From an uncultured Pseudomonadota bacterium (lineage in GTDB: Bacteria; Desulfobacterota; Binatia; Binatales; Binataceae), in the NCBI GenBank assembly GCA_963837035.1, contig CAWIMH010000035.1:341770-405769 (forward strand): 64,000 nt of DNA, written 5' to 3'. The position numbers and the translations under genes are program-made. The notes below the pieces were generated by a model. That model did no database searches and had not been told where the DNA came from. It was given only the letters and a program-made list of their open reading frames with translations. Of this stretch, positions 1 to 43,611 are shown in pieces. Each line of letters opens with the position of its first letter. Position 1 is the first letter of the stretch.

Positions 1-668
1 CGACTTCACGTACCAGCCATGGCCAAGGCCGTAGGAAATGAGCGGCTGAAACTGCAGTTGGCTTTGAGGAGTCGCCACAGAATTCGTATATGCGAACGAG
101 ATGGGGTTCTGGAACAAAAAACCTACCATCAGGTGGGGGATGCCCCGGTAAGCGACGGCGGCTGCGGGTCCGGCTTGCCAGGCGTGCTTGCCCGCCTCGG
201 GAACTCTTCCAGTCGGGAATACAAACGTAGGCCCAATGCCCCAGCCAAACCCCGTCGTCTTCGGATCGGGCCAGTTGGAGACGAACAGATCGAGCAACTC
301 CATGTCGGTGAACTCGGTTATCGTTGAGCTACTACTCTGCGAAATAGCTAGGGTTTGTACCTTGAATGTTGGACGGATGATTTGCTTGAAGGGCAGGAAC
401 GAAAGTGGCTCCACCGGGAGCACCACCTTCAGGTTGACTTCGTTGGTTTGTGCGGGCGTTTTAAAATTCTCCGGCGTGTACTGATCCTGAAGTTTAAATT
501 GCGTCAGAATCGCGGTCGGATCGTCCACTTCCCGGGCCAACTGGTCTTCTTCGGTTTCGCTGACAACGGGATTGGCCACGAGGCCCTGGCCTCGCGCGCT
601 GTTCGTTAAAATCAGAAGGGCGAACACAGGTAGCGAGACCGCGAAGCATTTCGCGCTCAGCATTCGAA

Positions 669-1946
669 TTAAAATTTCCAGATAACATGCAGGGCCAGGA
701 AGTTAAGGTAATTCGTTGAGAAATGCCCCTGCAGTGTTCCAGCAAGCGGCCCGCGGCGATTACTAAACGGTCCCGGGCCCGCATCGAGGAATTCCCACGC
801 GGCGCCAGCCGTTACATTACGATTGACCTCATACTGGATGCCGGTGCCGTATCTCAGCTGGCGATCAAAAGGAAGGACGGCATTACGGTTCGCTTTGGAA
901 ACTGGCGAACTGTCATACGCAAATCCTGCCGACCACAGCCACTTCTCAGCTAACCGAAATTGCTGCCCAATCGCAATCTGCCAAGTGTTCGAAAAATGCA
1001 GATTTGCATCGACCGTGCGCTGAGTTTGCGCTGAGATTCCAACCGGGAACTCTCCGAACTCCGTCCAGTTTTGCCAGCCGACGTTACCCATCAGGCTGAA
1101 GTTGGGTAGGACCTCGTAGACCGCGCTCGCCATCACCTGCTGGGGTTCCGTTAGAGGGACATTAAATTGTGCCCCGCCGATTCGTTTGCTGATCGCGCCG
1201 AGGCCCGGACCGAGATGGGTGAGATGCGGTTTGAACCCAAACTTGTAATACTCGGGTGACTGGTAGGTGAGCCCAATGCGTAGTTTCGGAATCGGCCTGA
1301 GCAATATGCCGGCCCTGCCACCGAACGCTTCGTCCCACGACTCGAGCGAGTAGCCACCATCCCCCAGGCGCGGAAGAGCGTTATTAACCTTTGATTGAAA
1401 CGTCAAGCGTCCGACCGCAAAGCTGAAACCCGCGCCCACTGATAGCCAGTCGTTTACCTCAAAAGCAATTGAGGGGGCGATCTTGCCAGTGAAAAGTGCT
1501 GCGCGGGTTATGTAATAGCGTCCGACCCATTCTTTGCCGTAGTTTCCGGCAAGACCGTAATCTGAATAGAGCGCCACGCCGAGCCACAGCCGCTCGGAAA
1601 ATTTGTGGGCATAGAAGAACGCCCCTATGGGCATAAACACCCCGGCGTTGCCGCCGCCACTGCCCTTGGTTGTCGTTTGTGGGGCGACGTTGAAGTTAAC
1701 CGAGGGCAGGAGTGCACCTGAGGCCCACATCAGTTGCGAGCGATCGAGCAGTGTCATGCCGGCGGGATTGGCAGCCGCAGTCGATGCATCCGCGGCCATT
1801 GCGGCTCGTCCCGCGCTCGCGGTCCCAAGATCAGGCGCACCCGTTTCGTAAAGCTCGAGGGCGGCGCCTCGCGCGGGCGTAACGAATGCCACGAGGACCA
1901 GTGCTGCGAGACACGTAGCTTGGTGAATTTTAGATGCTAGGCGCAT
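669..1946 (-). CDS. FadL/TodX-family outer-membrane transporter for hydrophobic compounds (long-chain fatty acid transport protein-like)
   Basis: 474-aa ORF. The likely true start is the internal Met (MRLASK...), which is followed by a hydrophobic signal peptide ending ARG-AA. The protein is Gly/aromatic-rich in a beta-barrel-like pattern with a C-terminal aromatic residue, typical of the FadL/TodX family. Family assignment is from recall of sequence character; no search was run. Confidence 0.65.
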   Translation of the reverse strand: MRLASKIHQATCLAALVLVAFVTPARGAALELYETGAPDLGTASAGRAAMAADASTAAANPAGMTLLDRSQLMWASGALLPSVNFNVAPQTTTKGSGGGNAGVFMPIGAFFYAHKFSERLWLGVALYSDYGLAGNYGKEWVGRYYITRAALFTGKIAPSIAFEVNDWLSVGAGFSFAVGRLTFQSKVNNALPRLGDGGYSLESWDEAFGGRAGILLRPIPKLRIGLTYQSPEYYKFGFKPHLTHLGPGLGAISKRIGGAQFNVPLTEPQQVMASAVYEVLPNFSLMGNVGWQNWTEFGEFPVGISAQTQRTVDANLHFSNTWQIAIGQQFRLAEKWLWSAGFAYDSSPVSKANRNAVLPFDRQLRYGTGIQYEVNRNVTAGAAWEFLDAGPGPFSNRRGPLAGTLQGHFSTNYLNFLALHVIWKF

Positions 1947-2171
1947 GGTTGCTCCAATTGCTCTGGAAAACGTTAGCGCCGATCCTGCTCCCGTGTCGCC
2001 GATCAATGGACGCACTGCGAACGCCGCGACCATCGCCGCCAGCAGTGCACTGTATCGGTGCGGCGCAAAATGCCGATGGATCGCCGTGCGCATTTCTTCC
2101 AGAGGGTATCTTCGTTTCAGTGCCCGCTGTTTGACTTCCGATTTAGCCTGGTCCCGGATTGGTCGTCGAGC

Positions 2172-3035
2172 TCAGTCACCGAAAAGATTCCCTTTGATGA
2201 GTTTCGGGATAACCGGCGTGATTGCGAATTGCAGATTCCATTTCTGGCCGAACACGTCAGGATGAACCGGCATGTACTGTCCCTGGACCTGCAGTTTCAC
2301 GGGTAGGGGGCCAATTTTTATCACCTTGCTGACATTCAGACCGACTGGAAAAGTGATCATGTTGGCGCTTTTATTCGCGTACCAGTTGACAAGGATATTC
2401 GGGGAGGTTCCGATTCCCCATCCGTCACCGGGGAGGTAGACGAAGAAGTACTGAATGTTCATCTGGCTTGTGGTCTGCGAGCCAGGCCCACCGACCGAGA
2501 ACCACTGCTGTGGGAATACGCCTCCCAGCCATTTTTCGCCCAAATAGCCAAGCACTCCTCCCGGACCTATTTGCCACTTGTTCTGGCCCAAACGTGAATT
2601 GCTTGCAGTGGGAAAGATGAAACTGGGTCCGGCTCCCAGCAGCCAAGGGCCTGATAGCTTCGGACTTGGTGAGATCAGCGTTGCGAGGATAGTGTCCCCA
2701 AATCCGGTGACGCGATGAAGATTGCCGCTCTTGTTCACGTACGGTGTCGAATTCATCACTTGGAAGACGGGACGAGTGATCAGATTCCAATCGTCGGTCA
2801 ACGCAAGAGGCAGAACGGGCTGAAACTGGAGGTTAACAACATTGCGCTCCGGTTTATCGAGCCAATAGGTATTTTCCTGAAGTTGGAGCGCCCAGATGCT
2901 CGAAATCGGGTTCGAGAGTTCCTTATTGACCTCGTCAAGCGATTTGCCGTCGGCCGTCTGCGCCGCGGCACGGGTGACCATGAGGAGGCCAAACACTCCG
3001 ATCAGGGTAATCATCCGTGCGTATCGGTGATTCAT
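2172..3035 (-). CDS. secreted outer-membrane beta-barrel-like protein of unknown function (possibly MetA-pathway/transporter-like OMP)
   Basis: 287-aa ORF with an N-terminal signal peptide (MNHRYARMITLIGVFGLLMVTRAAAQ). It has alternating hydrophobic, Gly-rich strands and a C-terminal aromatic (F-G-D). It lies on the same strand as, and adjacent to, the FadL-like gene. Confidence 0.4.
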   Translation of the reverse strand: MNHRYARMITLIGVFGLLMVTRAAAQTADGKSLDEVNKELSNPISSIWALQLQENTYWLDKPERNVVNLQFQPVLPLALTDDWNLITRPVFQVMNSTPYVNKSGNLHRVTGFGDTILATLISPSPKLSGPWLLGAGPSFIFPTASNSRLGQNKWQIGPGGVLGYLGEKWLGGVFPQQWFSVGGPGSQTTSQMNIQYFFVYLPGDGWGIGTSPNILVNWYANKSANMITFPVGLNVSKVIKIGPLPVKLQVQGQYMPVHPDVFGQKWNLQFAITPVIPKLIKGNLFGD

Positions 3036-3174
3036 GAAACCCGCTCTGAAAATCGCACGCGGACATCGTCACTCCGCCGACGCAAACCGCTGACCGCCAA
3101 CTGCGTTGCGTTCAACAACCTCAAGCCATTGACTCGATGCCATAGTGCGAACAGGCCAACAGTGGGAAACCCGA

Positions 3175-4200
3175 TCAACCAGGACTTGGCACCACGCGAT
3201 AGTAGATGCCGTTCGCACCATATGCCGGTTGGAACCACGTATTACCGCATAAGTAGTAGGTTATGCCCCCGATGCTGGGTTGTGCACACCCCGTTTTCGG
3301 CACCGTTGGATAGATTGCTCCCATCGCATAAGCAGTGTTGACGGTGCCAGCGGTATAGCCGGAGTTGTAAGCACTCGCAGCGGCTGCATTGTTGTTCGCA
3401 TTGGCCACTGTCGCCCCAACGGCCGCCCCGGCAACCGCACCGACCGCCAGGCCAGCGGCTCCCGCGGTGCTCCATCCCCCGCAATTGGAGCAACTGCTGC
3501 CGTAGTAGTTCACGGTCGTAGGTGGATGATAGGTGCTATAGCTGCCGCCATAGTAGGCGCCGGAGCTGTTGTAAGTAGTTGAGGCGTAATGATTAGTGGT
3601 GTTATAGGTGTTCCCGCCGTACGCGGATGTCGTCGGATAAGAGCCATAATGGCCAGCGGAGGTTGTCGCACCATACCCAGTCTTGCCGTACGCAGACTGG
3701 CCGTATTGGTTGGTCGCACCCCATGTACCGCTTCCACCGGCTGCGGAACCTCCGTTGGCACCGTGAGCGTTCCACGAACCCGCTCCACCCGAGGCAGTGC
3801 CGCCATTTGAAGTATGACCGTTCCAAGAGCCTTCCCCGCCCGACGCAGAGCCACCGCTGGCGCCGTGGGCGTTCCACGATCCACTTCCGCCCGATGCAGT
3901 ACCGCCGTTGCCAGAATGACCGCTCCACGAGCCACTTCCGCCCGAAGCGGAGCCGCCATGTCCGCCGCTTCCGCTCCACGAGCCACCACCACCAGATGCT
4001 GATCCACCGCCGGCTCCATGACCGCTCCACGAACCTCCTCCGCCCGAGGCTGATCCTCCGTAGGTTCCAGAATGGTTCCAGGAACCGCCCCCGCCCGATG
4101 AAGAGCCGCCATAGCGGCTCGCGTGCGACCAAGCAGCCGCCGGCCCATTCGAGAGCGCCAAAATCAGGAGGCCAACAAAACCGATGAAGCTGATTTTCAT
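3175..4200 (-). CDS. secreted Gly/Ser-rich repeat protein with Trp/His-containing 17-aa tandem repeats and a glycine-zipper hydrophobic segment
   Basis: 341 aa. Signal peptide MKISFIGFVGLLILALSNGPAAA. It has about 7 tandem repeats of the form SW[NS][GA]H[GST]xxGG[ST]ASGG[GSAE]G, followed by a Tyr/Thr/Asn-rich low-complexity region. Next comes GLAVGAVAGAAVGATVA (glycine-zipper-like), then a C-terminal tail with 4 Cys. The overlapping antisense ORFs (3510-4148, 3602-4270, 3627-4187) are repeat artifacts. Confidence 0.55.
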   Translation of the reverse strand: MKISFIGFVGLLILALSNGPAAAWSHASRYGGSSSGGGGSWNHSGTYGGSASGGGGSWSGHGAGGGSASGGGGSWSGSGGHGGSASGGSGSWSGHSGNGGTASGGSGSWNAHGASGGSASGGEGSWNGHTSNGGTASGGAGSWNAHGANGGSAAGGSGTWGATNQYGQSAYGKTGYGATTSAGHYGSYPTTSAYGGNTYNTTNHYASTTYNSSGAYYGGSYSTYHPPTTVNYYGSSCSNCGGWSTAGAAGLAVGAVAGAAVGATVANANNNAAAASAYNSGYTAGTVNTAYAMGAIYPTVPKTGCAQPSIGGITYYLCGNTWFQPAYGANGIYYRVVPSPG

Positions 4201-4212
4201 AGCAACGTCTCC

Positions 4213-5076
4213 TTAAGGAGTCGTCGAATGCTTGGCTCTTGGTGGTCGCTTCATACCCTGTTGTAACCACGAATCGGGGCGTGCGAACGCGATTCGCTTT
4301 GCGGCCGCTGCTTGAGTAGAAGAGAAGGCGTCCGCCGGGATCTCAGGATCGATCTTCCAGTCCGAGAGATCCAACTGGTTGCGTAGCCGCGAAGGATCGT
4401 CTCGAAACACGGCGCGGAGCATCCGGGGCAGCTTGTCTTCGGTACCGATCCATATCTGCAGGAACACGTTGTCGTTGACATACGCGACCATATCCGTGGT
4501 CGTTCCGCCGACCACAACAGATTGACCGATGTAAAACGCGACCCTTAGCCCCTCGGTAAGATCCTTGTACGGATCGCTGACGATCACGTCGCTGAATGGA
4601 AAATATATCGCGGCGGAGTGGTCGGCTTCCTCCAAGGTAGCGTCGATTGTGGGCGGCGCGGGCGCGATCGCGGCTAGATTCTCGATCGGGGCAAAGGCAG
4701 TCATGGTCTTGCCGTCATAATAGAACTCGGAGCGAGGACCGTCGCCGACCGTGATAACGCGAAGCTTGTCGGGCCGCATCATGGTGACCTCCGATTTGGT
4801 CGTGTAGGCAAGTGGGGGACCGAGCCGGCTAGGATTCTCGTAAGTGACCACCGCCGTGAACTGCATCGAGTGCGCGGCTGCCAAACGGGCGCATGCAGTC
4901 TTGAGAATATCGAGCGCCTTGGGCTCCAGGCTGGGAGCCGCGTTTTTACTCGACTCTTTGGTATGCTTGGAAGCCTGCGGCGGCGCTGGTTGCGGCTGCT
5001 GGGCATTCGCGGGCGCGGTCAGAAAAATACTCAACGTCAGCACCAGCGCGCTTCCTATCAGCTTGGATCGGAACAT
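4213..5076 (-). CDS. periplasmic protein, DUF2092/LolA-fold-like
   Basis: The likely start is the internal Met (MFRSKLIGSALVLTLSIFLTAPANAQQ), giving a signal peptide. The rest resembles DUF2092-type periplasmic proteins that are often encoded near outer-membrane genes. Confidence 0.45.
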   Translation of the reverse strand: MFRSKLIGSALVLTLSIFLTAPANAQQPQPAPPQASKHTKESSKNAAPSLEPKALDILKTACARLAAAHSMQFTAVVTYENPSRLGPPLAYTTKSEVTMMRPDKLRVITVGDGPRSEFYYDGKTMTAFAPIENLAAIAPAPPTIDATLEEADHSAAIYFPFSDVIVSDPYKDLTEGLRVAFYIGQSVVVGGTTTDMVAYVNDNVFLQIWIGTEDKLPRMLRAVFRDDPSRLRNQLDLSDWKIDPEIPADAFSSTQAAAAKRIAFARPDSWLQQGMKRPPRAKHSTTP

Positions 5077-5123
5077 CACCGCGAACGATGATGAACCAAA
5101 TGGAAGCGCTTCTCCTGCGGTGG

Positions 5124-5414
5124 TCATGGGAGCAGCCCGCATTCAAACATTTTGTTGGCGATCGGCGCTGCCACTCGATCGATGAAGGCCGCCCGCATCT
5201 GCGGATCGTCGCGCAAGAGTTGAATGGCTTCCTGTTCTCTCGGTGAATGCGGCTGGCCCCGCCGCTGCCACAACTGCTCGCACGAGGAATTCTGGTATTT
5301 TTGGACGACCTGGTCGGCGATCCGATCCATCACCGGATGCTGCTGCGCGCTGGCTACGCCCCCGGAGCCAAGCAGTGCGGACACAAAGGCCAATACGTAA
5401 ATACGCTTGTTCAT
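5124..5414 (-). CDS. small secreted protein, unknown function
   Basis: The internal Met start gives MNKRIYVLAFVSALLGSGGVASAQQ, a signal peptide. The mature protein is about 70 aa with 2 Cys. It overlaps the downstream gene by 19 nt on the same strand. Confidence 0.35.
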   Translation of the reverse strand: MNKRIYVLAFVSALLGSGGVASAQQHPVMDRIADQVVQKYQNSSCEQLWQRRGQPHSPREQEAIQLLRDDPQMRAAFIDRVAAPIANKMFECGLLP

Positions 5415-5512
5415 AGATTTATCCTGCTCTCGATTAAAGGTGCTCTGCGGGAGCAGCGAGCGAGCCCACCGGAAGGCACCCACCGTTAATTTCATTTCTC
5501 TTACTGGTCTAT

Positions 5513-7138
5513 TTACTGGCCAGTCCCTTTGCTCGCCGCCTCCGCCTCCGCCATCTTTTTCGCCATCTCAGCTTTCAACGCGTCAAGGTTGAAACTAGCC
5601 CCCCGCTGCATCGGCGGGTAATCGAGGAAGGTCTTGATTTCTTTGGCCATCAACTGCTGGACGAACACAAAGCGCCAGAACTGGTACTTGAACCAATCGA
5701 AGTATTGCTGCGCACCGTCTTTCGTTCCATTGCCGGGCCAGCCCGTGCGCTCGAAGGGATCCAGGCGCAGGTTGGTGATGTAGGGCACGTCCGGATGGGT
5801 CTTATCCCCGAGCCAGCCATTGGGCTGGTCGATGAAACGGTACTTATAGTCGTCAATGCGCACCGCGCCGATTGTGCTTTCGCCGAGGTAGAAGATTTCG
5901 TGGCGCGCGGACGGCCCTTTGCCGGTGATCGCAGCCATCTGGTTATAGCCGTCCAGATGGTTCCTGTAGGTTCGGTCGCCGATCGTCTTACCCTTCAGCA
6001 ATTCCTGGGTGATGTTCGGATTGCCCGCCGCTGCCACGAAGGTCGGAAGCCAGTCGAGGCCGGAAAAGATGCCGTTCTGCACCGAGTCCGGGGGGACGTG
6101 GCCGGGCCAGCGAAGGAGCGTGGGAACGCGGAAACCGCCCTCGAGGACTGTTCCCTTGGATTGCGCAAACGGCGTCTGACCGCCATCGGGCCAGGTGAAA
6201 ACTTCCGTGCCGTTGTCAGTCGTGAAGACCACGATGGTGTTGTCGTCGACCCCCATGTCCTTGAGTTTCTTCATAACGAGGCCGACATCATCATCGATCT
6301 GGGCCATGCCGGCTTCCTCTTCCGACCAGCCATTCTCCGAGTTCCGCATCGCTTCGTATTTTGGGGAGAGATGCGTGACGATGTGCATGCGGGTCGGGTT
6401 GAGCCAGACGAAGAACGGTTTGCCGTCCTTTTGGGCCTTGTCCATAAACTTGATGGCGAGGTCGCGAATCTCGTCGTCCACGGTTTCCATCCGTTTCGGA
6501 TAGAGCGTGCCGGCATCCTCGATCTTCTGCTTGCCGATCCTGCCCCAGCGCGGCATCTCGGTGGGGTCATCCTTGTCAGTGGCCCAGCTATGAACCATGT
6601 TGCGCGGGCCGACGACATTCAACAGGTTCTGCGGATAGTTGGGGTGTGCCGGATCTTCCATCGCATCGAGGTGATACAAATAGCCGAAAAATTCGTCGAA
6701 GCCGTGGACGGTGGGCAGGAACTCATTGCGATCGCCAAGGTGATTCTTGCCGAACTGGCCCGTGGCATAGCCCATGGACTTAAGCACCGTGGCGATGGTC
6801 ACCGCTTCCGCCGGTATGCCGATCTTGGCACCAGCTTGGCCGACTGTGGTCATACCCGTGCGGATCGGGAGCTCGCCAGTGATGAAGTTCGCCCGACCCG
6901 CCGTACAGCTTGCCTCGGCGTAGTAGTCGGTGAACAGCATGCCCTCCTTGGCGATCTTGTCGAGGTTCGGCGTCCTGCCAGCCATCATGCCGCGATGATA
7001 GGCCCCGATATTCCACATGCCGATGTCGTCGCCCATGATCACGACGATGTTGGGTTTCTTCTCTTGCGCCTGCGCCCCGCGTGTGAGCGACAAACCGATG
7101 ATCGCGCAGATCGACAAGGCGACGCCGAAATGTCTCAT
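5513..7138 (-). CDS. arylsulfatase (type I sulfatase) with signal peptide
   Basis: Strong sulfatase hallmarks are present: KPNIVVIMGDDIG, the FGE-target motif S-C-T-A-G-R (the C-x-A-x-R variant of CxPxR) followed by ANFITG, GKNHLGD, and the C-terminal sulfatase domain. Starting at MRHFGVALSICAIIGLSLTRGAQA gives a signal peptide. The antisense 536-aa ORF (5705-7315) is rejected. Confidence 0.85.
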   Translation of the reverse strand: MRHFGVALSICAIIGLSLTRGAQAQEKKPNIVVIMGDDIGMWNIGAYHRGMMAGRTPNLDKIAKEGMLFTDYYAEASCTAGRANFITGELPIRTGMTTVGQAGAKIGIPAEAVTIATVLKSMGYATGQFGKNHLGDRNEFLPTVHGFDEFFGYLYHLDAMEDPAHPNYPQNLLNVVGPRNMVHSWATDKDDPTEMPRWGRIGKQKIEDAGTLYPKRMETVDDEIRDLAIKFMDKAQKDGKPFFVWLNPTRMHIVTHLSPKYEAMRNSENGWSEEEAGMAQIDDDVGLVMKKLKDMGVDDNTIVVFTTDNGTEVFTWPDGGQTPFAQSKGTVLEGGFRVPTLLRWPGHVPPDSVQNGIFSGLDWLPTFVAAAGNPNITQELLKGKTIGDRTYRNHLDGYNQMAAITGKGPSARHEIFYLGESTIGAVRIDDYKYRFIDQPNGWLGDKTHPDVPYITNLRLDPFERTGWPGNGTKDGAQQYFDWFKYQFWRFVFVQQLMAKEIKTFLDYPPMQRGASFNLDALKAEMAKKMAEAEAASKGTGQ

Positions 7139-7190
7139 TTTCCAACTAGGCATTGGAACTCGCCTCCCGGATTCAGTGTGTCCGCCTTTC

Positions 7191-7955
7191 TCAATTGGCG
7201 GCGGCTGCCGCGCTCTGCTGAACGCCAAAGCTCACCAGCTTTTGGTCGAGTCCATTGGCCCAGTAGTCGATGGCGTTTTCAGCATCACCCCACTGAAACA
7301 CGTCGACGTTCTTGATCGACGTGCCGCCAACTCGTTTGTCCGCCCAGGCCGCAAGCAATTGTCCGGAAACCGAATCGTTCAGCTTCCCGGCACCCTGCGC
7401 CGAACCTACGAATGCGTACGTGCCAGTCGCCGCCATCTTTATCGCACTGAGCACGCGGGCTTGTGGTACCACCACCGAAATGCTTCGCAGTACCGGGACG
7501 GCTGAGGTGGCGTCGGTCAAAGCGACGGAGAGTTTCATCACACCCGGACCAGGTTGATCCACGATCGTGAAGTTCTTCCCGAGATCCTTCACAAGGGTGC
7601 TGTACATATAGTTGCAAAGCGCCTGTTGATCAGCGGCGGAGACCTTGGAATCGTCCGCGGCCCAAAAAGTGACCGGAGCGATCATGATCTTGTTGTAGCT
7701 GGACCAGGTCACATTCGGGTTGACGTACCGGAGCATAGCCTTTTGGTCGGACCCTTCCGCAGGCGGCGTCATCAGAGAGTAGTCATTGCCGAGAAACCCG
7801 CTGGGCGCCGGCGGAGCCGGGGTTTCGCCTTGCGCTCGCTGGATAAGGTTCGGCTCGGGAGCCGCGGTTTGTGAACATCCGGCCAATAGGAATCCGGCAA
7901 GTAGAATAGGCACCAGACCGCTGGCAAACTTCATGCTTGCGATTTTGTGATTCAT
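7191..7955 (-). CDS. DUF3313-type lipoprotein
   Basis: Start at MNHKIASMKFASGLVPILLAGFLLAGC, giving a lipobox L-A-G-C. A GGAGG ribosome-binding site lies 5 nt upstream of this ATG. The size and composition fit the DUF3313 lipoprotein family. Confidence 0.5.
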   Translation of the reverse strand: MNHKIASMKFASGLVPILLAGFLLAGCSQTAAPEPNLIQRAQGETPAPPAPSGFLGNDYSLMTPPAEGSDQKAMLRYVNPNVTWSSYNKIMIAPVTFWAADDSKVSAADQQALCNYMYSTLVKDLGKNFTIVDQPGPGVMKLSVALTDATSAVPVLRSISVVVPQARVLSAIKMAATGTYAFVGSAQGAGKLNDSVSGQLLAAWADKRVGGTSIKNVDVFQWGDAENAIDYWANGLDQKLVSFGVQQSAAAAAN

Positions 7956-8047
7956 CTTCTCCTCCAATTGCTTTGTCTCTTTGATATTTAATTCTGAGGG
8001 CTTCTTTCGGACTATTCGGCTTTCGCGAGATCGGAACCTCGGTCAAA

Positions 8048-9445
8048 CTAAAGTTGTGGGCCTTCCTGGAGTGTCCAGCCATTCGCGGACAGCTGCTGGC
8101 GCGCGAGCGGTGTCATTTTGCCGGTGATCCAAAGAACGCGATGGTGCAAGGCCATCAACTCGGGAGCGGTCGCAAAACCTGCTATTCGCTGCGTCCACGA
8201 CACATAGTCGACGGGAGCCGGCATTATCGTCGCGCCATTCTGATCGCGCGCAACCAGCACACCGGGTACCCGAATCCTGGTAATCGGACTCCTCTGCCGG
8301 TTCCATTGGTCGAGCATGCTAAGTGACGTAACCATGAAACGCGCCTGGTACTCCGTCATCATGCTGCCCAGCGCAACCGCCGCAGCACGGCGTCCCGGAA
8401 TGTTGCCGAGAGCGTCGAGATCTCTGACCGCGGAAACCTGCAGACTCAACGGAATCGCGCTATTACTGATGAAAGAGGTGATCTCCTCCTGCGACAGCCC
8501 GATGTTCTTCAGTTTCTTCTGAACGAGAAGGATGAGGTCGGCTTTCGGTGTCTGATAGACGAGATCGTCGCTGAACTCGACGCCCGTGATGATCATCGAC
8601 GCGGGTACCGCCATCATTGCGACATCAACCGTCATACGAGCCGAGAACATCACCCACGCAACTTTGTTCAGCCTCTTGGTGAGAATCGGATCGGAAGTGT
8701 AGGGATCGACGTGTAACTTCCGAGCGAGGTCGCGACGGACCTGATCGTAGCCCAAGGCCGTTAGCGTAGCAGTGCCAGTCTCACCGGCGGCTTTTCCACT
8801 CCCGGGAGAACTCGTAGCCGCCGAGTAGATCTCTCCCGCCCCGAGACTCACCCGGCCAAACAATTCGCCGACTCCGCTGGGCAACCCGGTCACGGTGTCC
8901 ATCGGATGTCTTACCATGTTTGCAGCGTCTGTTACCGGGCGCTCGGCACTCGAGGCCAGCGCTTTGGCGAATACGCCGGTCTCACTAATGTTTTCCAACT
9001 GCGCGATCGCTGGTATCTCGGACAGGCGTATCTTCAGCATATCGAGACTTTCGATGTAGTAGGTGCCGGCGTCGCCGCGAAATACCGATGCGTCGGCTAC
9101 TATGGTGTATTGGCCCATCGCACCGTTGGTCGCCACTTGTTGCCCCACCTGATAGCCGGGACCGGATTGTATGTCCGGCGACAGAAGTTGACTAAGGTCC
9201 ACAATCGGCGGTTCCTCGAATTGACCGGTGGTTGCCCAACCCGAGGGCGGCTGAGCCGGTTGCGGTGCAACACTCTCGCCCTGAGCTGCGCCGGACGGTG
9301 GCGGCGCCGGATTACCGGTCTGTGCTTGCGCCATTTGAGGCGTCGCGGGTGCGGACGATTGGGCGCACCCCGCCAGCAGTAATCCGGCGATCAAAAAAGC
9401 CCGTGTTGCGATCCATCCTTTCAGACACCTCGAACTGAGACCCAT
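8048..9445 (-). CDS. lipoprotein, unknown function (465 aa)
   Basis: MGLSSRCLKGWIATRAFLIAGLLLAGC gives a lipobox. It is followed by a Pro/Ala/Gln-rich linker and then a globular domain. It is the first gene of the minus-strand cluster that ends with the FadL-like gene. Confidence 0.5.
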   Translation of the reverse strand: MGLSSRCLKGWIATRAFLIAGLLLAGCAQSSAPATPQMAQAQTGNPAPPPSGAAQGESVAPQPAQPPSGWATTGQFEEPPIVDLSQLLSPDIQSGPGYQVGQQVATNGAMGQYTIVADASVFRGDAGTYYIESLDMLKIRLSEIPAIAQLENISETGVFAKALASSAERPVTDAANMVRHPMDTVTGLPSGVGELFGRVSLGAGEIYSAATSSPGSGKAAGETGTATLTALGYDQVRRDLARKLHVDPYTSDPILTKRLNKVAWVMFSARMTVDVAMMAVPASMIITGVEFSDDLVYQTPKADLILLVQKKLKNIGLSQEEITSFISNSAIPLSLQVSAVRDLDALGNIPGRRAAAVALGSMMTEYQARFMVTSLSMLDQWNRQRSPITRIRVPGVLVARDQNGATIMPAPVDYVSWTQRIAGFATAPELMALHHRVLWITGKMTPLARQQLSANGWTLQEGPQL

Positions 9446-9709: not shown

Positions 9710-10096
9710 TTGTGGGAAAAGTCGACGGCCACAGTAATTGTGGTAGATGACGACGTATCCATCCGCCGCGCCCTGGGACGTCAGTTGCAGATTCTGGGCT
9801 TCGACGTATTGGTCTTTCAGAGCGCGGAAGAGCTGCTGGTCTCCGAGCTACCTATTAATAACACTTGCCTACTGTTGGACGTCTATATGCCGGGAATGAG
9901 CGGGATTGAGCTCTGCCAGAGTTTGGTGGCGTCAGGACGGCACTTGCCGACGATCCTGATGAGCGGCCGTGACGACGAGGCAACGAGAGAAATCATGCGC
10001 CAAGCAAAACCGATCGCCGGCTTATTCAAGCCATTCGATCAGAAAACCCTGCTACAAGCGATCCGAAGGGCATTGCGCAATTTGCGAAAGAGCTGA
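9710..10096 (+). CDS. stand-alone response-regulator receiver protein (CheY-like)
   Basis: 128 aa. It has the VVDDD acidic pocket, the LLLDVYMPGMSG phospho-acceptor region and a conserved K near the C-terminus. There is no output domain. Confidence 0.75.
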   Translation: MWEKSTATVIVVDDDVSIRRALGRQLQILGFDVLVFQSAEELLVSELPINNTCLLLDVYMPGMSGIELCQSLVASGRHLPTILMSGRDDEATREIMRQAKPIAGLFKPFDQKTLLQAIRRALRNLRKS

Positions 10097-10237: not shown

Positions 10238-11675
10238 ATGATGTCCACGGCCCCGCATTCCGCGGGCCAATCCCGGCCTGTTGCTGGGTATTGCCAACTG
10301 GCCGGGTACACGCATTCTCTGATGCGACCAGCAACAGCTGCAAAACTGACCCCACCACTTCTCCGTGCTCGAAGCTTGCGTGGAATCCGTCCACGGCGCG
10401 AAATTGAGCGCTTCGAATTGCTGTTGGACGAATTGTCGGCGGTGATGACCCGGACTCCTGCCGATGCGAGTCGACGGCGAAATCGAAACCTGGCTGGGCA
10501 AGATTTGCCAGGCCTTGGGGTTGGATCGCAGCGGCATCTATGAGCGTGATTCGCCGCTCGATCCCGTGCGCACTACGCATACCTGGAAGCGGCCAAATAT
10601 TCCTCCATTTCCTCGGGATTTCGATCCGGAGAAGTATCTAAAGACGACTACCGACTGGGTTATGGCGGGTAATCAGATTGTGTTCTCGTCGCCGAGCGGA
10701 ATTCCGGCCGAGCTGGCAGGATGCAAGACGCTTCGTCGAGCGATATCGGCCCCAAGGCTTCCGCCGTCATTCCGATGTGGGCCGGAAATCGAGTGATCGG
10801 CGCGGCGAGCTTTGGCAAGTTCCGCGCAGCGCGGGAATGGCCGCCAAAACTCCTCGAACAACTCACTCTCGCGGTCAGGCTCTTCGGCAGCGCGATTGAA
10901 CGCAAGCAGGCAGAGGCGGAGCGCCGCGCAACTCTTGCGCAGCTGCGGACCGCGTCGCGTCGCAACATGATGAGCGAACTCGTCGCCTCACTTTCACATG
11001 AAATCAACCAGCCTCTGGGTGCGATCCTGAGCAACCTGGGAGGTCTCGCGCGGTTGCTCTCGCGGAAAAATCCGGAACCCGCGATGGCCCTTGCTGCGGT
11101 CAACAACGCGATTGAGGATACCAAACGGGCTGCTGAAATCATTCGACGAATCCGTTTCATGTTCAAGGCTCATCCTGAACACAAAACAGCAGTCAGTATT
11201 GGCGCGTTGGCTGACGAAGTGGTGAACTTGATCGCTAGCGAGGCAGCGCTCCGTAAAGTTGAAGTGCTCCTGGAAGTTTCGCCCGCCGTCAAGCGCGTAA
11301 TCGGAGATCGCATTCAGCTGCAGCAATGCTTACTGAATCTGCTCATGAATGGCTTTCGACGCGATCACCGAGAGCAAGTCCGACCAGCGCGAGATAACGA
11401 TCAAAATCGCCCCGGAGAAGCCCGGATGGGTCGGCTTCAGCGTGAGCGATACCGGTGGTGGCATCGACCCTTCGGTCGCCGACCGACTATTCGAACCGTT
11501 TGTTACAACCAAAAGCAATGGTATGGGATTGGGCTTGCTCGTGACCCGATCGATCGTCGAGAATCACGGCGGCAAGATCTGGGCGACGCCGAATCCCGAT
11601 GGCGGAACCACGTTCACCTTCACGCTTCCTTTGGTGCAAAGAAAGCAAGCCAGCGCATCGAAGCGCGGCAATTGA
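10238..11675 (+). pseudogene. sensor histidine kinase (GAF-like, HisKA, HATPase_c) interrupted by at least 3 frameshifts
   Basis: Three overlapping ORFs in different frames read as one protein: an N-terminal region, a GAF-like region (IPMWAGNRVIGAASFGKF), HisKA (LSHEINQPL), and HATPase_c split at LLNLLMNG|AFDAITES. The HATPase_c split is explained by one extra g (aatggcttt versus expected aatgctttc). Confidence 0.6.
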
Positions 11676-11686
11676 CGGCCTGCCGG

Positions 11687-12330
11687 TTAATTTGACCCGC
11701 CTTGAGCGAATCGCGTGGGCGTGGAATTCTCAAGGATTCCAGACATGCGGACGAGACCGGCGAGCGAGTCGGCCTTCATTTTGATCATTACGCGTTCGCG
11801 ATGTGCCTTAACCGTACGCTCCGTGGTTCCCAACTCGGCTCCCACCTGCTTGTTCAACAGACCCCTCGTGATTAGAGCGAAGACTTCGCGTTCGCGAGGG
11901 GTAAGCGCATCCAAGCGACTTTCGAGCTCGATCCGCTGGGCATGCTCGGCACGCCGCTTACGCGATTAGTTCGGCGCCACGAATTATCGAACTCACGAAA
12001 GCTTCTTCGTCGAGCGGCTTTTCAAGAAAATCCACCGCGCCCTTTCTCATCGCATGCATTCCGAGCGACAGATCGCCGTGGCCGCTGATGAACACGATTG
12101 ATGCGAATGGAACCGTGCGGTACAGCTTCGCCTGAAGCTGCAACCCGTTCATTCTCGGCAGAAAATTGTCCACCACGATACAATCAAAGGCGCTTGCGTC
12201 AGTGACATTGAGAAATTCTTCAGCAGAGTCTATGTGGGGCGACCTGAAAGCCTGCAGCACCGAGCTGGAAGACCAACGCTTGCGCGCAACCGCTCGTCGT
12301 CTTCAACGAGCGCCACCTTGATGGCCTCGT
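11687..12330 (-). pseudogene. FixJ/NarL-type response regulator (receiver plus LuxR-type HTH) with 2 frameshifts
   Basis: The receiver N-terminus (IKVALVEDDERLRASV), the receiver core (DCIVVDNFLPRMNGLQL...SGHGD...KGAVDFLEKP) and the LuxR HTH ([12 protein letters not shown]...[19 protein letters not shown]) lie in three different frames. Removing one base near 11958 restores ...[27 protein letters not shown]. Confidence 0.6.
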
Positions 12331-12840: not shown

Positions 12841-15108
12841 ATGCGTGAGCCCATTCGTCCCGTAATTGCTTCGAAACAATCCCCCGTCCTTAGAGCGAAG
12901 TTCGTGGGATCCGCTGACTGCGCGACCTGTCACGAGCGCGAGAATTCCCTATGGCGTGGCTCGCATCATCAATTGGCGATGCAACCTGCTGCGAATTCCA
13001 CGGTCTTGGGCGATTTCAACAACGCGAGCTTCAGCAACGATGGGATCACTTCAACCTTTTTTCGAAGGGACTCCAAGTTCATGGTCCGCACCGACGGTCC
13101 CGACGGAGCCCTTCAGGGATTACGAAATCAAGTACACGTTTGGCGTCTCACCACTGCAGCAATATCTGATCGCCATGCCGGGCGGACGCTTGCAGGCGCT
13201 AGGAATCGCATGGGACAGCCGCCGGCGCGAGCACGGTGGTCAGCGTTGGTTCTTTCTCTATCCAGGCCAGAGAATCTCGTTTTTACATCCGTTGCACTGG
13301 ACCGGTATCGATCAGACCTGGAACTTCATGTGTGCGGACTGCCATTCGACCAACGTGCGCAAGAACTACGAACCGCGGACGCGTACTTATGCCACCAGCT
13401 ATGCCGAGATCGACGTAGCCTGCGAGGCTTGTCACGGTCCCGGATCGAATCACGACTCGTGGGCGCGGAAGCAAGGCGATTGGCGAAACTTTCGAGATCC
13501 AACCACGGACTGACTATCGCGCTTGACGAACGCAACGGAGTGTCGTGGCCGGTCGACTCCGCCGGCAACACCGTCCACCGTAGCAGGCCGCGCGAATCTG
13601 AACGGGAAATCCAGATGTGCGCGCGATGCCATTCGCGTCGCGGTGAGATTTACGAAGAATACGTCCACGGCCAACCTGTCGGCGACGACTATCGCGTCGC
13701 GCTGCTCGATCAAGACCTCTATTTTCCTGACGGCCAGATCAAGGGAGAAGTTTATGAATACGGCTCATTCGTCCAGAGCAGGATGTTCCATGCTGGGGTA
13801 ACCTGCAGCGATTGCCACGAACCACATAGCCTCAAACTCCGAGCCGATGGCAATAATGTCTGTCTGCAATGCCATTCCGCTCCAAAGTACGATTCAGCGA
13901 AGCATCACTTCCACCAAAAGGGGATCGCCCGGCGCGCAATGCGTCGAATGTCATATGCCGACGCGGACCTACATGGTCATTGATGCGCGACATGATCACA
14001 GCCTCCGCATTCCTCGTCCCGACCTGTCAGTGAAGCTCGGTACGCCCAACGCGTGCACCAATTGCCACAAGGATAAGTCCGCCCAATGGGCCTCGGATTC
14101 CGTGGACAAATGGTACGGGGGCGTACCAGTCGGCTTTCAGCATTTCGCTGTGGCGCTTGACTCGGGAATCCAGCAGGCGCCGGGTGCCCGGCAATCGCTC
14201 ACCGACCTCCTCGCCGATCGCGATCAGCCTGCAATCGCCCGCGCCACCGCCCTTTCAATGCTCGCCGCCTACGCTCCTTATCCGGCCGATGCTACCGTTC
14301 GCGCCGGAATCACGGACGCTTCGCCACTCGTTAGACGTGCCGCCGCTCGAGCGCTTTCGAACTCCGACCTCGCCACCGGCGCATCGATTCTGGCGCCGCT
14401 TCTGAGCGATCCATGCGCTCGGTTCGAATAGAACTTGCCGAGGTGCTCGCCGGCGTGTCTGCGGACATGCTCCCCACCAACGTCGCACAGTCGTTGGATC
14501 GCGCTACAGATGAGTACATCGCCGCTCAGGAATTGAACACCGATCGACCCGAAGCACATATGAATCTGGGGTTGCTCTACGCGCGGGAAAAGCACCTAGA
14601 CCAGGCCGAGGCGGAGCTCAAAAGCGCGTTGTCACTCGACCCAGCTTTTGCACCCGCGGCGGTCAACCTCGCCGACCTTTATCGCGCGCAGAACCGGGAT
14701 GCTGAAGGTGAACAGATCCTCGATGATGCTATCAATCGTTCGCCCAACGACGGGTCACTGCAACACGCGCTCGGTCTGTTGATGGTGCGCCAGAAGCAGG
14801 GCCGAAAAGCTTTAGCTCTATTCGCTGCCGCCGCACAACTCGATCCCGCGAACGCGAGATACGCATATGTATACGCAGTCGCTCTGAATGACACCGGCCA
14901 GACCAGCACTGCAATTGAAACACTCGAGCGCAATCTCAAACTGCATCCTTATGATCGCGATTCACTCACCGCACTGGTTAGCCTTTGCGATCGGGTTGGC
15001 AAATCACTGGAGGCGCTCAGCTATGCCCAACGCCTCTATGAACTTGATCCGGAGGACTTGCAAGTGCGGCAGATGCTCAAAGCGCTGAACGGCCAGATTC
15101 ACAACTGA
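12841..15108 (+). pseudogene. multiheme cytochrome c domain fused to C-terminal TPR repeats, at least 4 frameshifts
   Basis: Several CxxCH heme motifs are present (CATCH, CADCH, CEACH, CARCH, CSDCH, CLQCH, CVECH, CTNCH). They are spread over 3 frames (ORFs 12841-13983, 12866-13513, 13847-14431). These are followed by TPR repeats in ORF 14413-15108. The architecture matches the cytochrome-c-family-plus-TPR proteins common in Acidobacteria and Deltaproteobacteria. Confidence 0.55.
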
Positions 15109-15777: not shown

Positions 15778-17280
15778 CTAGTGGCTACCGCCCTGCTGTT
15801 GAAGCTTTTCCATCACCTGGTCGATGGTAAAGCTGGCTGCTTTCTGGCGCGGCGGGTACTCCACGAACGTCTTCAGAAAATTTGCCACGAGGCTCTGGGC
15901 GGGCAGAAACATGTAGATGTGATTGATTACCCAATCCCAATAGGTATTCGAAGTAATATCTGCGCGCTCGTACGGGTCCGTGCGCAGATTGAAAAGCTTT
16001 GGAAACCGTAAGGGCACAAGTGGCTCCTGCCAGATTTGCAGCGTGCCTGGTACCCGCTGCTCCATGAAAATTAACTTCCAATTGTCATAGCGCAAGGCCA
16101 TCAGGTCGCCATCATCGGAGAAGTAGAAGTATTCGATGCGCGGACTTGTTTCCTTGCCCCTGAAGTGCGGCAGATAATTGTAACCGTCGAGATGCACCTT
16201 AAAACTCTTCTTGCCCGCCTGATGCCCCTTTAGCAGTTTCTCCTTGATACCGGGCTCGCCCGCGGCAGCCAGCAGAGTGGGGAGCCAGTCCAGATGACTG
16301 ATTATTTCGTTCGATACGGTTCCGGGTTTGATTACACCCGGCCAGCGGACCATGCATGGCACGCGAAATGCGCCTTCCCAGTTGGAATTTTTCTCGTTCC
16401 GGAAGGGTGTCATTCCGGCGTCTGGCCAGGAGTTCATGTGCGGACCGTTGTCAGTGCTGTACATGACGACGGTGTTGTCGGCGATGCCGAGGTCATCGAG
16501 CTTTTTGAGGAGTTTGCCGACGATCTGGTCGTGCTCGATCATGACGTCATGATATTCGGACTGCCAGCGACCCGCCTGGCCCACGATTTCGGGCTTGGCG
16601 TGGGTGCGGAAGTGCATATGGGAGGTGTTGAACCAAACGAAGAAGGGCAGGTTCGCTTTCACCTGCCGCTCGACAAAATCCTCAGTTTTAGCGATGACCT
16701 CGTCGTCGATCGTGCGCATCCGTTCTTTGCCCAGAGGGCCTGTGTCGACAATCAACTGAGTTCCGTCGGGATTGGCCTTGCAGTCAAGCACACCGCGCGG
16801 GCCGAAGTTTTTCTTGAAGTTGGGATAGTCGGAGGCGGGCGGATAGTCGGGGAGCTCCGGCTCCTCCATAGCGTTAAGGTGATAGAGGAAGCCGAAGAAC
16901 TCGTCGAAGCCGTGGCTGGTCGGCAGGAATTCGTCCCTGTCTCCGAAATGGTTCTTGCCGAACTGCCCGGTAGCGTAGCCAAGCGGCTTGAGCAATTCAG
17001 CGATGGTCGGATCCTCCGGGCGCAGACCCAGGTCAGCTCCGGGCACTCCGACCTTGCTTAATCCAGTCCGAAAGACGCTCTGACCGGTAATGAACGCCGA
17101 TCGGCCAGCGGTGCAACTTTGCTCGCCGTAGCTGTCGGTGAACAGGATCCCCTCCGTCGCGACTCGATCGATATTTGGCGTCCGATAGCCCATCATCCCT
17201 TTCGTGAAGATGCTGAGGTTCGCGGTGCCGATGTCGTCACCCCAGATGATCAGAATGTTCGGGTTTTTGTTCGCCGCCAT
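15778..17280 (-). CDS. arylsulfatase paralog (type I sulfatase) lacking a signal peptide
   Basis: It has NPNILIIWGDDIG, SCTAGRSAFITG (the same C-x-A-x-R variant), GKNHFGD and a sulfatase C-terminal domain. It is about 60% identical by eye to the 5513-7138 sulfatase over the N-terminal 140 aa. Neither possible start (MKWYLARETQ... at 17376 or MAANKNP at 17280) gives a hydrophobic signal peptide. Confidence 0.8.
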   Translation of the reverse strand: MAANKNPNILIIWGDDIGTANLSIFTKGMMGYRTPNIDRVATEGILFTDSYGEQSCTAGRSAFITGQSVFRTGLSKVGVPGADLGLRPEDPTIAELLKPLGYATGQFGKNHFGDRDEFLPTSHGFDEFFGFLYHLNAMEEPELPDYPPASDYPNFKKNFGPRGVLDCKANPDGTQLIVDTGPLGKERMRTIDDEVIAKTEDFVERQVKANLPFFVWFNTSHMHFRTHAKPEIVGQAGRWQSEYHDVMIEHDQIVGKLLKKLDDLGIADNTVVMYSTDNGPHMNSWPDAGMTPFRNEKNSNWEGAFRVPCMVRWPGVIKPGTVSNEIISHLDWLPTLLAAAGEPGIKEKLLKGHQAGKKSFKVHLDGYNYLPHFRGKETSPRIEYFYFSDDGDLMALRYDNWKLIFMEQRVPGTLQIWQEPLVPLRFPKLFNLRTDPYERADITSNTYWDWVINHIYMFLPAQSLVANFLKTFVEYPPRQKAASFTIDQVMEKLQQQGGSH

Positions 17281-17372
17281 TGCCTTTCCCTTTTTTAGAA
17301 GCCTTTTCGGCTTGCATTGATCAAGATTGTTAAAATTCGAGGCGGATTGTGTTTCCCTTGCAAGATACCACT

Positions 17373-17762
17373 TCAATTACAGCCGTGACTGTTTGCGGTC
17401 TTGTAACAATTTTTGCCGCTGGGGCTCTTATATACGCCCTTGCCATTCTTGGTCTTGGCTTCTCCTCCCGCGCTCGTGTGCATCGTAATAACTCCATACT
17501 GATTCTTCTGTGAATGCCAAGCGTTGCCAGTATTGCGGTTATATACCCCGGCTTGTTCCCCGTTGTTGCACTCGACGCGGCCATATGCGGTTGTGTAGCA
17601 ACTAGCAAACGCGTCGGTAGAAAACAGCACCACTGTGAATATTCGCAGAGCGATTCTTTTTACTATCCTATGCCGAGATTTTCGATTTGGATCTCGAGTC
17701 AGCCTGCGCTGCAGCGAGGTTTTCAAAACACAAACAAACGTGGTCGTCAGAGGCACACACAA
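17373..17762 (-). CDS. small secreted Cys-containing protein (about 76-aa mature), unknown function
   Basis: The ORF ends 1 nt before the sulfatase-2 ORF. The internal segment KRIALRIFTVVLFSTDAFA|S looks like a signal peptide. The mature part has Cys pairs at both termini (CYTTAYGRVEC ... CYKTANSHGC). The true start is uncertain; a TTG or GTG start is possible. Confidence 0.35.
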   Translation of the reverse strand: MCVPLTTTFVCVLKTSLQRRLTRDPNRKSRHRIVKRIALRIFTVVLFSTDAFASCYTTAYGRVECNNGEQAGVYNRNTGNAWHSQKNQYGVITMHTSAGGEAKTKNGKGVYKSPSGKNCYKTANSHGCN

Positions 17763-43524: not shown

Positions 43525-43611
43525 TGGTGCCGAGGGGCGGGACTTGAACCCGCATGTGGTTTCCCACGGTGGATTTTGAGTCCACTGCGTCTGCCGTTTC
43601 GCCACCTCGGC
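43525..43611 (-). tRNA. tRNA-Leu (anticodon CAA), class II with a long variable arm; CCA encoded
   Basis: On the minus strand the gene reads gccgaggtggcgaaacggcagacgcagtggaCTCAAAAtccaccgtgggaaaccacatgcgggttcaagtcccgcccctcggcacca. The anticodon loop is ctCAAaa and the T-loop is TTCAAGT. The G-run at 43533-43536 has one more G than canonical T-stem/acceptor geometry allows. Confidence 0.8.

Follow-up and report, generated by a model that had tools for sequence, protein, structure and literature searches.

Introduction

Sulfatase genes that stand beside uptake components are known from several bacteria, among them the Pseudomonas aeruginosa enzyme PAS/AtsA with atsRBC, the atsBA genes of Klebsiella and the polysaccharide utilisation loci (PULs) of Bacteroidota. 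Sulfate esters form a major pool of soil organic sulfur, and we know of no account of the route by which uncultured soil lineages such as the Binatia reach the hydrophobic ones among them. Here we consider a 64-kb stretch of DNA from an uncultured Binatia bacterium (the whole of which we call the window) and, at its beginning, a chain of nine minus-strand genes, g1 to g9, in which a sulfatase gene, g3, is followed by three genes, g4-g5-g6, that we refer to as the trio. In what follows g1-g2-g3 are module A, the trio is module B, and g8-g9 are module C.

The likeness of this cluster to the ats loci and to sulfatase-bearing PULs lies in an S1 (formylglycine-type) sulfatase encoded next to uptake components. 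Unlike those systems, the cluster lacks an ABC importer, a SusC/SusD pair and a gene for anSME or FGE; its enzyme is exported, carries C-T-A-G-R and not C-x-P-x-R, and is accompanied by barrels of the FadL and MetA types, by a DUF2092 protein and by members of three unnamed families.

We propose that the locus, a lineage-specific chain of three modules, serves to scavenge in the periplasm those sulfate esters whose leaving groups are hydrophobic or aromatic, and we give this reading a probability of roughly 0.45. The main interest is the conserved trio and its linkage to sulfatases rather than an eight-gene string, the parts of which belong to or resemble known families. If the proposal is right, loci of this type add a periplasmic carrier module to sulfatase-based scavenging, and they offer a first functional context for DUF2092, for DUF3313 and for the Pfam-less families of g1, g4 (more than 3000 clusters) and g6. 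Since the trio is also found in cultivable Paraburkholderia, Caballeronia and Cupriavidus, its function is genetically testable even though the organism of the window is uncultured. Full-text literature searches on DUF2092, on DUF3313 and on arylsulfatase together with FadL and LolA turned up no experimental study of a system of this kind, and no description of one that joins an exported sulfatase to a DUF2092 trio and FadL; the LolA-like/MMPL protein of Thalassolituus was set aside for its different architecture.

Results

The trio is conserved across phylum-level lineages

The four genes on which the argument turns lie side by side (coordinates are those of the window; aa, amino acids; the arrow marks a predicted cleavage site):

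5513..7153, minus strand: g3, predicted periplasmic S1 (formylglycine-type) sulfatase, ~546 aa, Pfam Sulfatase 1.6e-51, signal peptide ...TRGAQA↓Q
5124..5414, minus strand: g4, secreted protein of 96 aa in which two Cys are conserved, opening gene of the trio
4213..5127, minus strand: g5, DUF2092 periplasmic protein, PF09865 1.3e-61
3175..4200, minus strand: g6, 341-aa secreted repeat protein, last gene of the trio

A scan of genome contigs with g5 found 248 relatives and returned 79 DUF2092 loci. Overall, 85 related loci (designated here by L and a number) were compared, by tblastn with the window proteins and by clustering of open reading frames (ORFs) called simply as the longest ones. Frameshifts occur in many of the related metagenome-assembled genomes (MAGs), possibly in the window too, and may be sequencing errors. 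The nearest loci come from an 'uncultured delta proteobacterium' and from Binataceae MAGs. Sequences identical to g1, g2, g4 and g7 are together on a single public contig of 662 kb, and the 90%-identity cluster of g7 has a member that bears the name Candidatus Binataceae. At nearly all of the 79 loci g4, g5 and g6 keep the same order and orientation, and the carriers, which represent at least five phylum-level lineages, include Binatia, Paraburkholderia, Caballeronia, Cupriavidus, Accumulibacter, Acidobacteriota, Syntrophobacteraceae and a cyanobacterium.

The small protein g4 has 3145 homologous clusters, all called 'hypothetical' save a few with inconsistent automatic names, and in most of the 79 loci its gene immediately precedes the one for DUF2092. 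The next gene, g5, matches PF09865 over model positions 3-211 of 212 with 208 bits (cut-off 21.2). Its ATG at 5127 overlaps the g4 stop codon as ATGA, the signal peptide begins at an alternative ATG at 5076, and 12 nucleotides (nt) separate it from g6.

The likeness of g5 to the periplasmic lipid-handling proteins LolA/LolB, RseB and LppX/LprG comes from the Pfam clan, which groups DUF2092 with LolA, and from published modelling that has described DUF2092 as remotely homologous to LolA (PMC4520260). When the family was aligned by hhalign with the E. coli LolA sequence, E was a weak 0.21, although F-T-x-x-V...RP-x-K-x-R...DGKT fell on the LolA core motif, and a 25-sequence profile of g5 found no match in the PDB. 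In contrast to housekeeping LolA, g5 is always flanked by g4 and g6, and neither lolB nor lolCDE is among the recurrent neighbours of the 79 loci.

Sulfatase genes are concentrated beside the trio

Sulfatases were sought in the loci by tblastn with three sulfatase types, and 46 genes were found in 36 of the 79 DUF2092 loci, 38 of them co-oriented with the trio and 32 within 2 kb of it. Counted in 1-kb bins of distance from the trio they number 19, 13, 2, 2, 1, 2, 2, 2, 3 and 0, over an available flank that is nearly flat (154 to 123 kb per bin, with 54 kb in the last); this amounts to 0.105 sulfatase genes per kb in the first 2 kb and to 0.014 per kb farther out, a difference of about sevenfold. 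A co-oriented sulfatase gene no farther than 2.5 kb from the trio is present in 27 of the 79 loci, from several phylum-level lineages. This enrichment is the strongest support for a sulfatase and a LolA-like protein working together. The original prediction had combined these two with a FadL channel, and here the outcome is divided: the linkage of sulfatase and DUF2092 stands, but FadL is not a general partner, being found near the trio in 5 of the 79 loci by ORF clustering and in 6 by tblastn.

The usual partner is an exported enzyme of ~840 aa with the canonical motif LCSPTRAALITGRNH, of CSPTR type, closest to the Pseudomonas arylsulfatase 1HDH (PAS; 1.5e-49). In the window, L003 and L071 the partner position is occupied by a ~540-aa sulfatase of another subfamily, for which the window and L071 share an Ala-variant motif (C-T-A-G-R in the window), and partner sulfatases altogether span two to three subfamilies. 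Because the partners may be either of the ~840-aa CSPTR or of the ~540-aa CTAGR type, this pattern argues for a link of the trio to sulfatase activity rather than to one gene lineage.

The sulfatase of the window itself, g3, aligns with model positions 1-300 of 301 of PF00884 at 175.8 bits (cut-off 25), and its formylglycine motif, S-C-T-A-G-R-A-N-F-I-T-G, lies at residue ~107 of the long ORF. The motif is the Ala variant of C/S-x-P/A-x-R and also occurs in L035, L054 and L071. The closest solved relative is the arylsulfatase 7AJ0 (4e-53), with which the DD, C-x-x-x-R, GKxH, DNG and K...EGG residues are aligned, and human ARSA is matched at ~1e-47. The catalytic motif of the predicted enzyme is thus intact.

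Farther along, the window carries a second exported sulfatase gene (15778-17376, minus strand; 532 aa, Pfam 2.3e-49, with Sulfatase_C) that is 56% identical to the trio-side sulfatase of L071. It is abutted by a 91-aa ORF (17376-17648, minus strand), 65% identical to F29, a family of small secreted Cys-containing proteins that recurs also in Paraburkholderia trio loci.

The repeat protein g6

The last member of the trio has no Pfam family and no Foldseek match in the PDB, and its homologues are named 'hypothetical' or mis-named 'RNA-binding'. From N- to C-terminus it consists of a signal peptide, W-S-H, the repeats, a YHPP...CxNCGGW segment, an Ala/Gly zipper and a C-terminal domain. The repeats are about eight 17-aa GGxASGGGGSWxxH units, with 51-nt and 102-nt tandem periodicity in the DNA; elsewhere in the family they read GGSxTHxxGxGTxxTN, and some members are His-rich. 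Residues 24-26 (window 4123-4131) are the WSH at the predicted mature N-terminus, and an aromatic-x-His follows the predicted signal-peptide site in 135 of 165 members of the family (WSH in 71), a pattern like the amino-terminal Cu(II)- and Ni(II)-binding (ATCUN) motif. Y-H-P-P and C-x-x-C-G-G-W are invariant in the family, within a region predicted to be disordered, and the 45-aa C-terminal beta domain has two near-invariant Cys and the motif GANGxYY.

In the AlphaFold2 model the repeats form beta-hairpins of ~19 short strands with a predicted local distance difference test score (pLDDT) of ~75, and the score is under 50 for residues 183-288 and over 90 for the C-terminal domain; residues 222-341 are matched by 427 representatives at 50% identity. 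The resemblance to the curli (Csg) and Fap systems is limited to a secreted Gly-rich repeat protein with predicted stacked beta-hairpins, small periplasmic partners and an adjacent barrel. Unlike the curli and Fap proteins, to which g6 has no sequence or structural similarity, it has GGGGSW or GGSxTH repeats, a C-terminal Cys domain and an Ala/Gly zipper, and no CsgG- or FapF-like gene accompanies it.

Two apparent fusions, P0045 (DUF2092 with g6) and P0012 (g6 with DUF4410), contain internal signal peptides or out-of-frame stretches and were set aside as read-through artefacts. A relation of the C-terminal domain to the repeats of an 870-aa Burkholderia neighbour came down to a YYLxxxWF motif, was not significant and was also dropped.

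The gene string as a probable mosaic of three modules

The trio and g3 are embedded among the following features:

8048..9445, minus strand: g1, ORF for a 465-aa lipoprotein (LLAG↓C), opening gene of module A, from a family without a name
7191..7955, minus strand: g2, DUF3313 lipoprotein, 254 aa from ATG 7955, PF11769 7e-46, LLAG↓C
2172..3035, minus strand: g7, 287-aa putative outer-membrane beta-barrel, distantly Phenol_MetA_deg-like, PF13557 3.8e-4
1947..2093, minus strand: relic (5' end) of an ion-channel-like gene, 49 codons, in frame with g8 and upstream of its true start
669..1946, minus strand: g8, predicted FadL/TodX-family outer-membrane channel, 425 aa from ATG 1946, Toluene_X 8.5e-52
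1..663, minus strand: g9, second Phenol_MetA_deg-like barrel, N-terminal 221 aa inside the window, start 5 nt past the g8 stop

All eight minus-strand ORFs of the original prediction were found at their coordinates, and their identities (a lipoprotein, a DUF3313 protein, an S1 sulfatase, a small secreted protein, a DUF2092 protein, a Gly/Ser/His/Trp repeat protein, a barrel and a FadL protein) were borne out, as was the predicted export of every product: each has an N-terminal signal peptide, with the lipobox LLAG↓C in g1 and g2 and A-x-A-type sites in the remaining products, peptides and sites being judged by eye. The co-orientation holds as well, but the cluster does not end at 669, as had been supposed, because a ninth co-oriented gene, g9, starts at 663. 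The short gaps reported between the genes are real, but most of the reported overlaps came from over-long ORF starts and only g4 and g5 may overlap; realistic starts are 7955 for g2, 7153 for g3, 5414 for g4, 5127 or 5076 for g5 and 1946 for g8, and public gene calls back the 254-aa g2 and the 96-aa g4. After this correction the spacers measure 5-98 nt, with two exceptions: g6 and g7 are separated by 139 nt, and g7 and g8 by 225 nt. All nine genes are intact, and such a run of consecutive same-strand genes, all for exported proteins, is in our judgement far above chance expectation. Neither Pfam nor NCBIfam has a family above threshold for g1, g4 or g6, and Rfam and tRNA scans found no RNA elements in the cluster.

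The order g1 to g7 is kept only in the nearest relatives, L082 and L083, with a 3.3-kb insertion; what does recur in other loci is the trio, module A and the pairing of FadL with a barrel. Near the trio DUF3313 is present in 4 of the 79 loci and a g1-like gene in 3, none of these 3 within 2.5 kb. The claim of one dedicated eight-gene system did not survive these counts, together with those of FadL, the occurrence of module A alone in L080 and L081, the loci that carry the trio and no sulfatase, and the scar between g7 and g8. Because only sub-blocks are conserved and modules A, B and C occur apart elsewhere, the gene string is best read as a lineage-specific mosaic of the three modules and not as an anciently conserved operon.

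In L082 and L083 the co-oriented order is g1-g2-g3-g4, then a ~725-aa sulfatase, two small ORFs and a second g4, then g5-g6-g7, a Phenol_MetA_deg barrel and PqiAB. The identities to the window are 74% for g1, 81% for g2, 66-72% for g3 (frameshifted), 91% for g4, 73% for the second g4, 85% for g5, 78% for g6 and 69% for g7. In L082 (10001-13892), as in L083, one and the same sequence, with the opening codons of g5 in it, comes after each of the two g4 copies. This implies that the window and L082 differ by a putative insertion or deletion bounded by the g4 repeat.

Module A is kept as a block in Binatia-type genomes, usually beside a two-component system. Its first gene, g1, has no sequence match in Pfam, NCBIfam or the PDB. 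It has 586 homologues; identity is 68% or higher throughout the best 120, and the only named one among those 120 is from Binataceae. The AlphaFold2 model has a mean pLDDT of 64 and is confident for a mixed alpha/beta core (residues 75-155 and 300-460), and Foldseek found nothing significant for it in the PDB (best E 0.03). For g2 both the DUF3313 family match and the lipobox are present, and a ribosome-binding site, GGAGGAG, precedes 7955. In L080 and L081 module A stands without the trio, downstream of a kinase and a GerE-type regulator, with g1 77-78% identical to that of the window. A 40-codon g4 relic (77% identical) lies directly upstream of pqiA in both (L080 19586-19705, L081 19671-19790); these genomes retain g1-g2-g3, and the rest of the trio is lost at that position.

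At the other end of the chain, a g7- or g9-type barrel gene directly follows g6 in the window and in L001, L002, L011, L037, L079, L082 and L083. Orthologues of g7 come right after the trio in L082 and L083 (69%) and in L011 and L079 (~50%), and g9 is a paralogue of g7 (28% identity) and 70% identical to the trio-adjacent barrel of L002. Both score under the PF13557 cut-off of 22 bits (21.0 for g7, 14 for g9), and eight of 14 members of the g7 family give weak matches to PF13557 only, the best at 4e-5. Against bona fide PF13557 neighbours the family reaches a marginal E of 0.038 by hhalign, in the same GD...PTG motif region, and a sequence search of the PDB gave nothing. Thus g7, g9 and their relatives resemble Phenol_MetA_deg (PF13557), the one family that they match, in the same motif region and with scores below its cut-off; in Burkholderiaceae and in L082 the trio has genuine PF13557 barrels as neighbours.

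The stretch upstream of the true start of g8 matches the N-termini of the Ion_trans_2-like family F16 (59% over 37 aa to L002, 65% over 40 aa to L061), which in those two loci is encoded close to the same genes. It is a rearrangement scar between g7 and g8, not a part of FadL. With g8 itself, the likeness to the FadL/TodX/TbuX channels consists in a nearly full-length match to PF03349 (model positions 6-391 of 421), a signal peptide (...TPARG↓A) and a C-terminal Phe (...IWKF). The NCBIfam FadL model gives 8e-30 and 104 bits against a cut-off of 585, which places g8 as a member of the FadL/TodX family far below the FadL equivalog level. The FadL genes of L001 and L002 share 70-73% identity with it. 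Unlike the described channels, g8 has no genes of fatty-acid or aromatic catabolism next to it; its partner is a g9-type barrel, and such a pair recurs in L001, L002, L004 and L006.

Scans for transcription signals neither split the cluster nor prove co-transcription, which we infer. Promoter-like sites are fewer than in shuffled sequence and absent from the spacers (the consensus may not be that of this lineage), all minus-strand terminator-like hits lie inside genes and none in spacers, and for five spacers the predicted folds are no better than those of shuffled versions (z -0.4 to +1.6).

Among the loci farther afield, about 25 of Paraburkholderia, Caballeronia and Cupriavidus carry the trio with no sulfatase within 10 kb. 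In place of it they have the 870-aa protein mentioned above, an SYLF/BPSL1445 lipoprotein, bestrophin-like and ion-channel-like proteins, a Phenol_MetA_deg barrel and a patatin. Recurrent neighbours at greater distance are a kinase and response regulators, PqiABC, a multihaem cytochrome-TPR protein, DUF1254/DUF1214, DUF4410, DUF4136, DUF3300, cardiolipin synthase and OmpA.

A degraded locus flanked by insertion sequences (IS) is found on plasmid p3 of Caballeronia zhejiangensis (L084; NZ_CP084287.1 415975-430568), with DUF3313 fragments, a g4-like gene, a shortened DUF2092 gene and no g6, and a PF04185 phosphoesterase (phospholipase C / acid phosphatase family) follows in the place of the sulfatase. 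The wider theme of 'head-group hydrolases' that this gene might suggest was abandoned, such a gene being present in none of the 79 loci.

Discussion

Starting from the gene content, the export signals, the sulfatase motif and the module-level synteny with its sulfatase enrichment, we infer a substrate class, a carrier function and a mode of regulation for the locus. Sulfate esters, which might be the aryl, alkyl, sterol or lipid sulfates of soil organic matter, would enter through the FadL and MetA-like barrels and would then be hydrolysed by the periplasmic formylglycine sulfatase. The DUF2092 protein would perhaps hold the poorly soluble substrate or the freed alcohol or phenol, with g4 and g6 as its obligatory partners, and g1 and g2 might act as accessories of the sulfatase g3.

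Several points weigh against this scavenging scenario. It leaves without a task g6, which among the partners of the DUF2092 protein is both the most conserved and the most unusual. Because some 25 Burkholderiaceae loci have the trio and no sulfatase, the function of the trio cannot depend strictly on a neighbouring sulfatase. The LolA-like fold presumed for g5 comes from the Pfam clan and the modelling cited above, and the profile comparisons with the PDB and with E. coli LolA did not confirm it. A motif scan for the FGE-type GNVWEW found none in the 64-kb window and just one in the 79 loci, and a maturase for g3 could be encoded elsewhere. With spacers of 139 and 225 nt, and with the gene relic, g7 and g8-g9 could each be transcribed on their own. 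The loci compared are species representatives and not phylogenetically independent samples, and the mechanism is read from sequences.

Much of the same evidence might instead describe an island for envelope or lipid homeostasis, in which the trio is a stress or maintenance module co-regulated with nearby exported hydrolases, with no mechanistic coupling between them, and the sulfatases are fellow members of a regulon under the adjacent two-component system. The recurrence of PqiA/PqiB/PqiC-like genes in 13-18 loci, of bestrophin-like genes in 21, of the SYLF/BPSL1445 lipoprotein in 14 and of kinases or response regulators in ~20, with cardiolipin synthase, patatin, OmpA and the DUF4410 and DUF4136 lipoproteins also recurring nearby, would suit such an island, as would the many loci without a sulfatase and the phosphoesterase in the degraded Caballeronia plasmid locus. 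Most of these neighbours, however, are more than 2.5 kb away in inconsistent orientation, and no partner other than the sulfatase is concentrated at 0-2 kb on the same strand. We consider this alternative somewhat unlikely. At the opposite extreme, modules A, B and C might be independent transcription units that form no functional unit, brought together by rearrangement and sharing a strand by chance. The ion-channel relic between g7 and g8, the two long spacers, the solitary module A of L080 and L081 with the g4 relic by pqiA, and the duplicated g4 that flanks the sulfatase insert of L082 all speak of rearrangement. Against mere chance stand the order of g1 to g7 kept in L082 and L083, the sulfatase-trio adjacency that recurs across phyla, the export of all nine products and the spacers without terminator-like structures, and we think such an accident improbable.

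Other alternatives centre on g6, for which the scavenging scenario has no task. The near-invariant adjacency and order of g4-g5-g6 would be natural if g5 were a chaperone that ferries the partly hydrophobic Ala/Gly-zipper protein g6 through the periplasm, with g4 as a helper, to the outer membrane or the cell surface, where g6 would form a beta-rich fibrous or surface layer. Its predicted beta-hairpin repeats, zipper and confidently modelled C-terminal domain are in keeping with such a client, and the barrel gene directly after g6 in the window and the seven loci listed above offers a possible pore. Homology to curli, Fap or other known fibre systems is nevertheless lacking, the apparent fusions are artefacts, and the sulfatase linkage is left unexplained; the probability of this arrangement is low in our estimate. 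We regard as very improbable a role in metal handling, with g6 as a periplasmic Cu(II)/Ni(II) binder through an ATCUN-type N-terminal X-X-His and a His...CxxC site. The aromatic-x-His after the predicted cleavage site in most of the family, the invariant Y-H-P-P and C-x-x-C-G-G-W and the His-rich repeats of some members point that way; but the cleavage site is itself a prediction, the repeat His is not conserved in most members, no copper or nickel resistance or transport genes recur nearby, and the Cys pairs may be disulfides. A broader proposal would take the trio as an undescribed, widespread periplasmic system that works with exported arylsulfatases, and g6 as a new family that serves either as a metal- or redox-active partner or as a scaffold on which hydrophobic sulfate esters, or what is made from them, are offered to the DUF2092 carrier; this is rather unlikely.

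Other features of the window

A two-component system lies next to the cluster. Its receiver gene (9710-10096, plus strand) is unsplit, and the histidine kinase (10464-11695, plus strand), the GerE-type regulator (11687-12260, minus strand) and the multihaem cytochrome-TPR gene (12841-15108, plus strand) are each split over several frames, being either pseudogenes or the product of long-read sequencing errors. Farther along, a tRNA-Leu(CAA) gene at 43525-43611 on the minus strand is the sole RNA gene of the window by ARAGORN and the sole Rfam match at gathering thresholds.

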